NCBI GenBank assembly: GCA_964016885.1
Contig: OZ024740.1
Span: forward strand, 106,392,001-106,456,000
Reading direction: 5' to 3'
DNA length: 64,000 nucleotides
From: Eledone cirrhosa
Lineage: Eukaryota
Notes under the pieces: model-generated
Told to the model about the DNA's origin: nothing
Databases searched by the model: none
Seen by the model: the letters and a program-made list of their open reading frames with translations, nothing else
In this document: piece by piece, positions 37,964 through 57,307 of the stretch
Numbering within the stretch: the first letter of the stretch is position 1
How the letters are laid out: every line of letters starts with the position of its first letter
Made by a program: the position numbers and the translations under genes

Positions 37964-38029
37964 TATTTTATCTGATGAGGACGTACTGAGGAAACAGCAC
38001 AGTAGCTCTGAAATATATATAATAAAATA
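37964..38029 (+). ncRNA. Type I hammerhead ribozyme motif in PLE pLTR
   Basis: TATTTTAT-CTGATGA-GGACGTACTG...CAGTAGCTCT-GAAA-TATATA-TA (cut after 38021)-ATAAAATA. Confidence 0.8.
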
Positions 38030-38230
38030 TATTTGATTACATGAATGTCTATATTTATTAATATTTTGAATTAATATTAATAACTCCAGAAAACTTCTTT
38101 GTTGAGTGCTTCTAATCTATTGTAAAACTATATTAATTGATTAATCAATGAACCTTGTTTAACTTTTGGTTATATATATATATATATATATATATATATA
38201 TATATATATATATATATATATATATATATA

Positions 38231-39130
38231 AGATTGTTCTATATATAAAATATTGTTCTACCAATAACAATATCTTGTGAGTTCCCTCTGTTTCGGAAAT
38301 TTTAGCATCTTTACATTGAGGAGTCAGCAAGTCGAAAAATATATTTTATACTTAAGAAAATTAACAAAGAAAATACAAGACCGAAACAAAACAAAATGAA
38401 AAACAATTTTTAAGAGGAACATAACAAATTTTTTTTAAAAATAAATATACAACCGAAGGACAGAACTCCTGGTCATCGGCCCTTGAGATGGAATTAGGCA
38501 GTTTTGACCCCTACCGACGGTGCTGTTGGTCCATCTGGTGTCAGCGTCGGACAAAAGCCAAAAGTTTTCCAAAGAAGTGAGAGACGTATGCCGATATCTT
38601 CATTATATTTACTCCCATGTTCAAAAACATAGGTTGGTGCAGTGCTGTATTTAGTATTCCCCACTGCCTTCCACTGTCCATCCCTCTAGCAGTTTTTGTG
38701 ACAGGACACCTGACATGCAACATATGTTTGGGTCCAGCCTCGCACTTATTCGTGGACAGCTGATCTCTTGTATATTTGGTTAAATAATTAATTGGTTGAT
38801 TAACTGATTGATTTATTAAGACTGCCCCAGTGACGAACGTTCCTATCTTGGCGTGCTAATTATTCATTTAATTGGGACAATTAACCCGTTTCTTCAGAAC
38901 TAGAAACAGTAGTTATCTGGACATGTTAGTAGAATGCTGTATTGCTAATATAAAATAAGTAATATTTCATTGTTCTAACTGATTGTGTATTCTATATGAT
39001 TGTTGTACAAAATATCCAATTCCTTGCACCAATATCGATATCTTGTGAGTTCCATCTGTTTTGGAAATTCTAGCGCCTTTACATTAAAGGGTTATAGGTC
39101 GGCAAGTCGGTATATATTTTTATATACCGA
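38231..39130 (-). mobile_element. Old non-coding element with diverged terminal direct repeats (offset 768) and a decayed HHR-like motif at 38821-38910
   Basis: 38260-38350 resembles 39029-39128. Minus strand has ACTGTTTCTAGTT-CTGAAGA...GGAACG-TT-CGTC-ACTGGGGCAGT. (TA)n flanks. Confidence 0.5.
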
Positions 39131-39224
39131 TATCTTTATTATATATATCTTTGTTATATATATATATCTTTATTATATATATATATATATATATATATAT
39201 ATATATATATATATATATATATAT

Positions 39225-53720: not shown

Positions 53721-53790
53721 ATCATTATATTTTGTCTGATGAGGACGTACTGTTGTACATCCGAAATATGTATAATAAAATGTAATTGAT
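53721..53790 (+). ncRNA. Type I hammerhead ribozyme motif in a PLE pLTR homologous to 37960-38170
   Basis: ATCATTATATTTTGT-CTGATGA-GGAC GTAC TGTT GTAC ATCC-GAAA-TATGTA-TA-ATAAAATGTAATTGAT. Downstream sequence is colinear with 38030-38170 up to (TA)n. Confidence 0.85.
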
Positions 53791-55069
53791 CAAAAGAACA
53801 TCTATTTTATTAATATTTATATTTTAATATTAATAACTCCGGAAAATTATTTTACCGTAGAGTGCTTCCAATCTACTGTAAAACTCATTCTTTGACATAC
53901 TCATTGAATATTGTTTAACACTTTAATATATATATATATATATATATATATATATATATATATATATATATATATATATATATATTGTCGACAGGTGTTT
54001 TTGTTAGTTGATTTCACTAGTCTGGAAACCTGGAAGGTTAAATGGTGACATGAATACGTCTTCGATTTCACTGTTTAGTCGATGAATGGTTGATGTCTAT
54101 CTATGATTAAAGAGTTATCTCTTTCAACACACGTGGTTCCACACATGTACACATGTACACATGTACACTCATTACTAATGTATCTATTGACATTTATCGT
54201 CTGCAATATTGGTATTTGACTACTAAATGTGGCTTAACTCTGCTAAACACCGTTTAACACGTATGAGAAATATTTCAATCAATTAAAGACCATCGATAAA
54301 CAAGTAGACATTAATGCTTAACTGAACTCATTAGCCTTTTGATGAATCTGTCGAACTTCACTAGTTGTCCGTTCTGATATATGATAATCGTCTCCATAGT
54401 GCAAGCAGCTTCCCTTGGTATGTCGCCTTGAATGACATCATCGGAAGGTGCTTGATGAGTCTGGTTTCCCATCTCAACTGAAGCATGTAGGCCTTGACCT
54501 TGGTGACGGTAAACATCCAGATGATATAACCATTTTTTTCTTTCGAGATGGGGCAGAGGCGAACCTTTAATTTGGGCCGCCATATACCGTGGCATTTTCT
54601 CATATTTAAACAAACCCGGGCATTACCGTCTGTAATGCAAAGGAACAGAAGATATCTAAATACAGGGATTTGATCAACCATATCCTTTTCGTGCAGGCTG
54701 CTGTCGAAATATCTGGTGACCTTGATCCTGGGCTGCGGTTTTCATCCGCAAAATCGGGAAAAATGTGTCTCGCATGAGGAAGGAGCCTCATTAAACGGAA
54801 GGGGTATTCAGCTTAACCCTCCTTTTTCCCCTTCCTCTTTTTCATTATTTTGTTCCTCACATTTTTATAATTTTCTCCCTCTTCCTGTTTATTTTTTAAA
54901 TACTTTGTTTTAAAAAACCAAACATCCATCATTCATTGTTCAACAATAAATTATCCACACAATCATCTTAACATTCTCTTCGCTAAACCCTATATGCGTA
55001 GCAAGCATTAAAAGAAACACACAGACTAGAAAATAAATTGTTGATTTTTTTACAATTAAAAACTAATAT

Positions 55070-55945
55070 TTAGACGTGTGGGGGTCGGTTGGTGGGAAAG
55101 AGGGTTGTGGTGCAGTCAGTACCACGAGCGCGGGTAAGAGCAGCTTGGATCACGGTGGGTGGGTATTCATTTTGGATGGAGCGAGAAGCCATGCGTGGAC
55201 ACTGAAACTGGAAATCATGGTCCTGGCTGCAGAGCAGACGAAGACGGAAGAATTGTGAGTAGGGTATAGAGAGTTTGGTGTGGGTGTGATAGGAGGTGAT
55301 GTGGAGGTAGGAGTGGGAGTCAGTAGATTTACATGGAAATAGAGAGCGTGTGGTGAGTATGATCGATGGGCAGAAAAATGTCTTAAAATTGAACAAAAGA
55401 ATGAGAGAAGGAAATGGTGAAGGTAAGAGCTGGATAAAAAGACTGAAACAAGGAAAGAAGGAAGTCGAGATATTCACAAGAGTTATAGGTGGCGCCAATG
55501 TAGTCGTCGATGTAACGACCGTATAGCACATGTGTACTGGGAGAAAATCTTCACCTCGACGTAGCCAACGAACAAGTTGGTATAGTTCGTGCCCATTCTG
55601 GTTCCCATGGCTTCCCCAAACCTGATGGTAAAAATGCCCATTAAAAGAAAACCCATTAAGGGTGAGAATGAGCTGAGCAAGACGGAGAAGAGGGGAAGTG
55701 TTAGGGTCAGGTGTACAGCGTAAGTCCAAAAAGTGTCAGAGAGCGCGAAGGCCGTCATGGTGGGGGATGACGGTGCAGAGAGATGTGATGTCCAGGGTGA
55801 AGAGAAGGGGAAGGGGGAGGGGGTAGAAGAGAACGAGAAGGAGTTGAAAGACTAAGAGCATGATTGGTGTCGTCGAAGTGGGAGGGGAGGTCGGTACTAA
55901 GTAGGCGAGGAGGGTATCAAGGTATTGTGAGGTTATTTCAGTAGG
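55070..55945 (-). pseudogene. Degenerate Penelope-like (Neptune-type) RT fragment
   Basis: [79 protein letters not shown]. Confidence 0.8.
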
Positions 55946-57307
55946 TGCAGTTATATATATGTTTATATATATACATACATATATATATATATATATATAT
56001 ATATATATATATATATATATATATATATATATATATATGTATATATATTTATATATATATGTATATATATATATATATATATGTATATATATTTATATAT
56101 ATATGTATATATATATATATGTATATATATATGTATATATATATATATATATGTATATATATATGTATAATATATTTATATATATATGTATATATATATA
56201 TATATATGTATATATATATATATATATGTATATATATATATATGTGTATATATATATATATATATGTATATATATATGTATAATATATTTATATATATAT
56301 GTATATATATATATATATATGTATATATATATATATATATGTATATATATATATATGTATATATATATATATATATATATGTATATATATATATATATAT
56401 ATATATATATATGTATATATATATATATATGTATATATATATATATATATGTATATATATATATATATATATATATGTATATATATATATATATATATAT
56501 ATATATATATATATATATGTATATATATATATATATATATATATATATATATGTATATATATATATATATATATATATATGTATATATATATATATATAT
56601 ATATATATATATATATGTATATGTATATATGTATATATATATATATATATGTATATATATATATATATGTATATATATATGTATATATATATGTATATAT
56701 ATATAAGAACAAAAGATGGTTATCATCATGCAATAATATTTGTGTTTTCATCAGATAAAACATGAAGACATGATATGAAGGTTAAAAAACACTTGTGGAT
56801 AGTTCAGTTTTAAATCAATATATATATATATATATATGTATATATATATATATATATATATATATATATATATATATATATATATATATATATATATATA
56901 TATATGTATATATATATATATATGTATATATATATATATATGTATATATATATATATATGTATATATATATATATATATATATATATATATATATATATA
57001 TATATGTATATATATATATATATGTATATATATATATATGTCTATATATATATATATATATATGTATATATGTATATATATATATGTATATATATATATA
57101 TATATTTTTTTATATATATATATATGTAAATATATATATGTATATATATGTATATATATAGATGTATATATATATATATGTATATATATATATATATATA
57201 TATATATATATATATATATATATATATATATATATATATATATATATATATATACATATACATATATATATACATATATATATATATATATATGTATATA
57301 TATATAT

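Follow-up and report, generated by a model that had tools for sequence, protein, structure and literature searches.

The window analysed here is a 64,000-nt stretch of the 3.0-Gb Eledone cirrhosa assembly (C1:106392001-106456000, contig OZ024740.1). It is AT-rich and full of repeats, with remnants of RTE-like LINEs (long interspersed nuclear elements) and Penelope-like elements, or PLEs. A reading made from the sequence alone (the sequence-only reading) had placed hammerhead motifs at 37979, 49600, 49106(-), 45979, 53743 and 56747(-), and had proposed that they form a distinct conserved variant with a C-C mismatch three pairs into stem II, that is, at position 10.4/11.4. A core scan of the window recovered all six sites together with two inverted twins (34976- and 49419-). 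Six of these eight motifs have an intact type I core (CUGANGA ... GAAA ... UH), one carries the core mutation C3G, and one is deleted (Table 1). A covariance model built from 29 representatives, with four of the eight window motifs in its training set, gave exactly eight matches in the window at E≤1, whereas the Rfam hammerhead models matched none of the eight at E≤10.

Table 1. Predicted hammerheads and associated features, in positions of the window
Feature	Positions	Strand	Details
Decayed insertion of a Hydra-clade PLE, flanked by (TA)n tracts	34871..38170	+	Inverted repeats 34871-35418 / 37544-38077; contains remnants of reverse transcriptase (RT) and GIY-YIG
Inverted twin of the 37972 hammerhead, within a 5'-truncated inverted copy	34921..34982	-	61.4 bits, outside training set
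Broken PLE open reading frame (ORF)	35418..36532	+	RT thumb 35418-35867; linker and endonuclease start with CxCX5C 35927-36532
Type I hammerhead, 3' pseudo-long terminal repeat (pseudo-LTR) of PLE	37966..38027	+	Core start 37972; C10.4 = 37982 opposite C 38006; predicted cut site after 38021; 65.5 bits, in training set
Conserved tail element ACUC...GAGUGCU, 3' of the cut site	38083..38110	+	Common to the families examined
Decayed hammerhead UGU-C/C-AUU	45966..46043	+	G replacing core C3; 33.2 bits, E 2e-6, outside training set
Hammerhead UGU-C/C-AUU with ACCGG/CCGGU extension	49058..49119	-	C10.4 = 49103 opposite C 49079
Inverted copy, identical to the 49593 hammerhead, in a short inverted insertion of a PLE	49365..49425	-	Core scan and covariance model, 70 bits, outside training set
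Hammerhead AAG-C/C-CUU	49587..49647	+	Core start 49593; C10.4 = 49603 opposite C 49626
Hammerhead GGA-C/A-UCC, member of an amplified C.A subfamily	53730..53780	+	C10.4 = 53746 opposite A 53759
Internally deleted remnant, AAA-C/U-UUU family	56691..56760	-	5' core and 5' stem II arm fused to tail sequence; 16.7 bits, E 0.076

The complete copies in the window end in GAAA-U(N4)A-UA, and the extensions ACCGG/CCGGU, GCC/GGC and ACAC/GUGU pair as had been described. The example at 56747(-) was only partly right: compared with family copies (L006/L010), a deletion has removed the 3' stem II arm, GAAA and stem III, so that the supposed partner strand U-CUU is 3'-tail sequence, but the family consensus is indeed AAA-C/U-UUU. 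The 37972 copy has an extra G/G mismatch beside C/C, a private mutation of a base that is C in the family, and neither C 49603 nor C 49626 showed a variant at ≥5% in the contigs compared. The 45972 copy is likely inactive, because C3G abolishes cleavage in the hammerhead of PAc, an Anolis Poseidon PLE (Frangieh et al. 2024, PMC11167929; this and the other publications are cited from excerpts). Two other hammerhead-like motifs, at 57564-57629 (+) and 33910 (-), do not have the mismatch, and the former gave the sole Rfam hammerhead match of the window (HH9, E 1.9).

The same architecture was found throughout the genome. The core pattern CTGATGA-N12-40-GAAATNNNNATA gave 86,080 matches, compared with 178 for the reversed pattern used as control. 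C at stem II position 4 stood opposite a base other than G in 81,131 of them (control 12), and the same pattern with a base other than U at N7 added 29,885 matches (control 141). The resulting 111,016 matches with C opposite C, U or A contrast with 614 with C opposite G (control 38); among the 100 of these 614 that were listed, most were scattered single mutants of big families, and others belonged to a low-copy canonical group. Chance core matches from viral contigs had C opposite non-G in only 10 of 121 cases. Thus, the genome holds about 110,000 copies, nearly all of them with C10.4 unpaired.

C10.4 was replaced in at most 4,718 of the 86,080 matches (5.5%; control 158), a number that counts nested and CpG-decay matches: the non-C rows among the matches listed were nested second cores, deletions, microsatellites and point mutants, many of them at CpG. 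The catalytic G8 was mutated in 1,371 matches against 81,131 (1.7%; control 85), and the free core position N7 was non-U in 29,885 of 111,016 (27%), with amplified variants. It follows that C10.4 decays like a consensus base. The opposite base is less constant. Most families have C there, the AAAC/GAAC group has U, and at least three amplified subfamilies (3,775 matches) have A. In the amplified subfamilies the 11.4 partner had changed while C10.4 stayed, and none with either repair was seen among the matches listed. This asymmetry points to the identity of the base rather than to mere unpairing. The mismatch proposed by the sequence-only reading is present in the family consensus, so that one disproof named there, a mismatch missing from consensus sequences, did not come about; what is fixed is the C, and not the C-C opposition.

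The AUA cleavage site, which had been taken as a defining trait, did not prove to be one. Matches with a base other than A at H17 numbered 3,209 (control 516) and include genuine AUC families that retain the mismatch (L347-L354). Conversely, AUA occurs with a paired stem II in a published D. willistoni PLE (GAAA-U-AGCU-A-UA, an end of the same form as in the window copies), one of two AUA sources, with Schmidtea, in the 56-row alignment of Cervera and de la Pena (2014, PMC4209133), and also in the low-copy group of the present genome. The latter (L355-L366; for example C1:126059107 and C1:261630274) has an AUA site, a canonical 4-bp stem II with C10.4-G11.4, a short loop and a bulged stem I, and is retrozyme-like; no PLE ORF was found upstream in the 12 loci fetched. 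Other hammerhead classes in the genome (12,976 matches, control 2,797) have perfect or short stems, and one of them (L045) belongs to a related endonuclease.

For the analysis of pairing, 149 motifs were sampled, 19 with a poor stem I were dropped, and the 130 with a paired stem I fell into 24 clusters. The 29 representatives were chosen by us; they are related and were all found by a pattern that fixes the core, and the shuffle test ignores their relatedness. Position 10.4/11.4 was unpaired in all 29. Around it, pairs 10.2, 10.3, 10.5 and 10.6 were formed in 28, 29, 26 and 29 of the 29 rows, with 10, 16, 5 and 12 two-sided changes, respectively. With all three stems considered and stem I open, 83% of the cells were paired, compared with ≤52% in slid controls, and 12 of 15 pairs showed a two-sided change; the covariation score was 0.64 against ≤0.19 in slid controls, a value for 29 related rows that is not a probability. 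The first stem II pair was unpaired in 10 of 29 representatives and G-C in 3. Hence, of the three core-proximal pairs said to be shared, 10.2 and 10.3 hold, but the first is often noncanonical, as with U.U in UGU/AUU. An alternative register with an extra base after A9, as in the consensus of Cervera and de la Pena, was rejected, as pairing falls to 33% when the alignment is slid accordingly.

Stem II here consists of three pairs, the mismatch and at least four further pairs, and it is not the canonical 4-bp stem II with a short loop that contacts a stem I bulge. In line with the tertiary contact that the sequence-only reading had put first, it was considered whether the internal mismatch might substitute for loop II by docking on stem I or the core and so raise activity at low Mg2+. 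The substitution is plausible in that the usual loop contact is lost with so long a distal stem II, canonical type I hammerheads touch stem I at stem II position 4-5 (PMC3088659), and many families carry an AAUA run with U at position 1.7 or close to it. However, no shared bulge or invariant G was found in stem I, the sequences of which differ wholly between families; the 11.4 base changes while stem I is constant (GGAC family, C/C versus C/A); and by prediction the fold is less stable with the mismatch. We therefore regard such a tertiary contact as unlikely. No constant RNA pairing partner for C10.4 was found in 25 folded contexts. Pairing of C10.4 with the tail sequence GAGUGCU was rejected, because the G concerned is A in a TATC subfamily while C stays, and the pairing is absent from the folded contexts; the 3' arm could instead pair with the core, but this suits the TATC family only.

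Inspection of stem III suggested how these motifs might cleave. Of 122 motifs, 112 had a self-complementary loop III hexamer, which switches between the palindromes TATATA, TGCGCA and TGATCA, and palindromic loop III swaps are a signature of dimer-type hammerheads (PMC4209133, PMC6765202). In the monomer the U15.2-A16.2 pair of stem III had a predicted probability of ≤0.08, while the self-duplex was predicted at -1.8 to -10.5 kcal/mol. By sequence and predicted folding, then, the motifs are type I hammerheads of the dimer type with a palindromic one-pair stem III, the cleavage itself being a prediction.

The mismatch appears to be costly. Replacement of the 11.4 base by G was predicted to stabilise stem II by 4.4–6.7 kcal/mol in eight copies and to rescue marginal proximal pairs; in the TATC family the predicted probability of the proximal pairs rose from ~0.03 to >0.95 upon C-G repair. 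These values would also suit a non-specific damping, in which any mismatch at position 4 weakens the proximal stem II, a slow ribozyme spares the template, and C is a relic of an ancestral C-G pair. That neither repair appears in any amplified subfamily, that the genomic copies carry no cleavage footprint (see below) and that C-G is the commonest pair at this position in related elements (21/54) all agree with it. Under damping, the bases on either side of the mismatch should both have changed, yet only the 3' base has done so in the amplified subfamilies, and we consider this explanation possible but rather doubtful.

The hammerheads lie 1.0–1.4 kb past the stop of an ORF for RT with a GIY-YIG endonuclease at its C-terminus and, in tandem copies, ~0.2 kb before the next ORF, in a unit of ~3.7 kb. 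This linkage of pseudo-LTR hammerhead and ORF was found for the AAAC, GAAC, AGGC, GGAC, TATC and GGTC families; the AUC families are not among them. The element protein has RLRW/RIRW in place of RWK, DKT as SDKT, CxCX5C as CNCRIKNKC, no CCHH, one C between LIY and YFG, and CNLC..E..N..CLH, and most sampled copies terminate at (TA)n. Judged by these motifs, the carriers are Hydra-clade Penelope-like retrotransposons. One family has intact 821-residue ORFs, with 150 scored copies at 97–100%, many of them at 98–99%. The broken ORF of the window is 63–65% identical to the RT of the AGGC family and 50–54% identical to that of the AAAC family.

Between families the proteins have diverged considerably. 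AAAC and AGGC share 53% RT and 48% endonuclease identity, and GGTC and AAAC share 44% endonuclease identity and 38% over 99 RT residues. In a quick endonuclease tree of 142 columns, 9 of 10 mismatch-class rows grouped together (support 86). In the RT tree, which sampled every third outgroup locus and excluded rows of <100 residues (GGTC among them), the window element grouped with AAAC and AGGC (4/4 rows, support 99). Both trees were set against metagenome relatives. The mismatch families thus likely share one origin. The motifs, which the sequence-only reading had described as divergent in sequence, are probably those of one retrotransposon lineage, so that the feature would be inherited rather than independently evolved.

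A single probable ancestor for all families would also fit a view in which the C has no role in the ribozyme and was retained through common ancestry or because a signal in the DNA of the pseudo-LTR, such as a promoter or an endonuclease site, overlaps it. Positions 10.4-10.5 are always C-purine, similar to a minimal polymerase II start dinucleotide. But every neighbouring non-core position has changed between families over ~50% protein divergence, and no reading frame runs through the C, stops occurring within a few codons in the window copies. We hold this view to be improbable. A coding constraint from the AUG in CUGAUGA was rejected on account of the same stops.

Related elements provided a view of the ancestral state. 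For the outgroup sample, contigs of metagenomes and of GTDB supplied 84 related loci; hammerheads were found at 53 of them (54 distinct), and 31 had none under the filter used. Position 4 of stem II was paired in 53 of the 54 (C-G 21, G-C 9, U-A 9, A-U 7, wobble 7), and the lone unpaired hammerhead is C/A with C-G siblings. C15.2 and a GUH site were present in 53 of 54. Because the outgroups are paired and the other classes of the same genome have perfect or short stems, the variant is lineage-specific within the sample examined, and it was probably derived from an ancestral C-G pair. Viral contigs held no PLE relative, and 0 of 120 tight-pattern matches there had the structure. Some Hydra-clade PLE ORFs with hammerheads (L321-L326) were found in contigs filed under bacterial genomes, likely as host contamination. 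Sequencing runs labelled as two other organisms gave fragments that were scarce and of low depth, and the variant is claimed for the present genome.

Published PLE hammerheads share much of this organization. The Hydra-clade elements in File S2 of Craig et al. (2021, PMC8557442) have the same clade protein motifs, (TA)n targets and inverted or tandem copies, and a type I hammerhead near the 3' end with a palindromic stem III and a first stem II pair that is often U.U or G.U without an extra base. All Hydra rows there have C15.2-G16.2 and GUH, whereas U15.2-A16.2, a 4-nt loop and AUA or AUC are found here; their stem II position 4 is paired, in contrast to C opposite C, U or A; and their units are generally <3 kb. 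The minimal hammerheads with small helix III of PMC4209133 likewise have pseudo-LTRs, massive copy number, a long helix II and a palindromic helix III, with dimer cleavage expected and low activity there. Their consensus contains an extra base after A9 and G10.1-C11.1, neither of which is present here. In that alignment D. virilis has a mid-helix II bulge and one S. purpuratus row has C/A at the fourth pair, but a conserved C mismatch was not found in the excerpted text or the 56 rows.

The non-LTR retrozyme hammerheads (PMC7229834) are also type I, with a one-pair stem III and palindromic tetraloop (axolotl HHR_Amex1), >100,000 genome copies and, in Amex2, U.U at the base of helix II. They differ in having a 4-bp stem II, loop I/loop II contacts and short tandem repeats, whereas the present carriers are protein-coding PLEs without canonical loops. 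PAc shares with the present elements the PLE type, an uncut RNA template and two internal RT starts giving a tail. It belongs to a different clade, its ORF starts inside stem II instead of ~0.2 kb downstream, the tail here is ~90 nt, and no mismatch is reported in the excerpts of PMC11167929; protein-assisted cleavage was shown for PAc and is proposed here.

A literature search for a C-C mismatch in hammerhead stem II gave nothing, and other titles and abstracts did not contain the variant. Lunse 2017 is reportedly the largest survey of PLE hammerhead variants. The variant was not found described in the excerpts of PMC4209133, PMC8557442, PMC11167929, PMC3088659, PMC6765202, PMC7229834, PMC6155905 and bioRxiv 2026.07.22.740005; Lunse 2017 and Arkhipova 2017, either of which may show it, lay outside this scope. 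Since C is the consensus, the flanking pairs covary and outgroup elements do not have the mismatch, the comparison indicates that the motifs are a distinct and conserved structural variant of known PLE hammerheads, apparently under selection, as the sequence-only reading had suspected.

The ends of genomic copies were informative about the template. Copy ends cluster ~40–70 and 125–155 nt beyond the cut site, and, as with the two RT start points of PAc, this implies that cDNA was copied through the site. In the one family examined for it, 5' ends were not found to accumulate at the cut site: 1 of 23 long copies ended there, and at least seven of them carry an intact upstream tandem hammerhead. 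Counted by eye over the first 100 of 378 rows, ~5 of 49 places had 5' ends at this site. As 5' ends do not favour the cut site, the template would be mostly uncut, or re-ligated. Very short AAAC copies were frequently 5'-truncated at the 3' foot of stem II, 13–17 nt upstream of the cut site; candidate causes are a stall of RT at the hairpin and microhomology to (TA)n. The tail element begins where short copies end and might be a signal for RT to bind or to start; it recurs with a compensatory change (GCUC...GAGCGCU) just before the ORF (L075, L076).

On these grounds we favour, tentatively and short of even confidence, a reading in which the invariant unpaired C10.4 is recognised by the element's own RT-endonuclease, making the motif a weak dimer-type ribozyme that cuts only inside the element's ribonucleoprotein. 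It is favoured by the combination of a fixed C with a changing opposite base, no constant RNA partner and wholly different stem I sequences. In the proposed mechanism, stem III would be unable to form in the monomer and would form between two copies through the palindrome; the predicted cost of the mismatch would leave the three core-proximal pairs marginal; and most transcripts would stay uncut, as reverse transcription needs, its start lying 3' of the cut site. Contact of the protein with the C might then rescue folding when cleavage is wanted, with selection presumably acting on the source elements. In the Anolis PLE, the hammerhead needs the element's protein for cleavage, and the RNA left uncut is the insertion substrate (PMC11167929).

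Several points weigh against this reading. The protein partner is arrived at by exclusion, and the C might instead touch the backbone or a base of the core. At the family level, 11.4 has changed only some four or five times, so that 'never G' and the asymmetry are statistically modest, and the copies are not independent, with the sampling and shuffle test of the 29 rows as described above. The window's 76-residue fragment falls outside the mismatch group of the endonuclease tree, where GGTC is on a long branch, and the RT tree lacks the GGTC and TATC families. Missing 5' ends at the cut site are also expected from circular or re-ligated templates, and the same is seen in PLEs without the mismatch.

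A putative poly(A) signal was found beside the ribozyme. AATAAA starts 4–8 nt past the cut site and overlaps the 3' strand of stem I (38022-38035 type position in the window; L001-L091, L243-L326). It was present in the first 16 nt in 67 of 122 motifs of this genome, compared with 1 of 122 in nt 21–36, and in 15 of 47 outgroup Hydra-clade hammerheads, compared with 1, 0 and 0 in the following windows. Ribozyme folding and use of the signal may be mutually exclusive. An overlap of AATAAA with stem I was not found described for hammerheads in a literature search. A further step, which we consider unlikely though worth stating, is that C10.4 is a protein-read switch, with RT-endonuclease bound at stem II choosing between an uncut polyadenylated template and dimer-dependent self-cleavage.

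The variant bears on why PLEs retain hammerheads with so little cleavage. Here a base outside the core is kept about as strictly as the catalytic core itself, throughout a radiation that is deep and still active, which offers one precise mutation to test: if C-G repair is without effect, the mismatch is a lineage curiosity. If the protein-switch reading is true, this would be the first natural hammerhead with a dedicated recognition site for its cognate protein, and a handle on why PLEs carry hammerheads. About 110,000 hammerheads of one genome escape Rfam, and likely also descriptors that demand a perfect stem II.

Other repeats of the window were also noted. At 47170-48813 there is another Hydra-type PLE with inverted ends, an endonuclease remnant (48147-48479, minus) and a short-stem hammerhead with core CAGAAGA; in the endonuclease tree this element is the sister of the mismatch group. 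A 597-codon PLE frame at 50260-52053 (-), with RT, GIY-YIG and a CxxxxCxxC linker, belongs to a different clade, which we take from its motif to be Neptune-like. The window opens with a satellite of 53-bp units at 4-25958, comprising ~490 copies with 92% matches.

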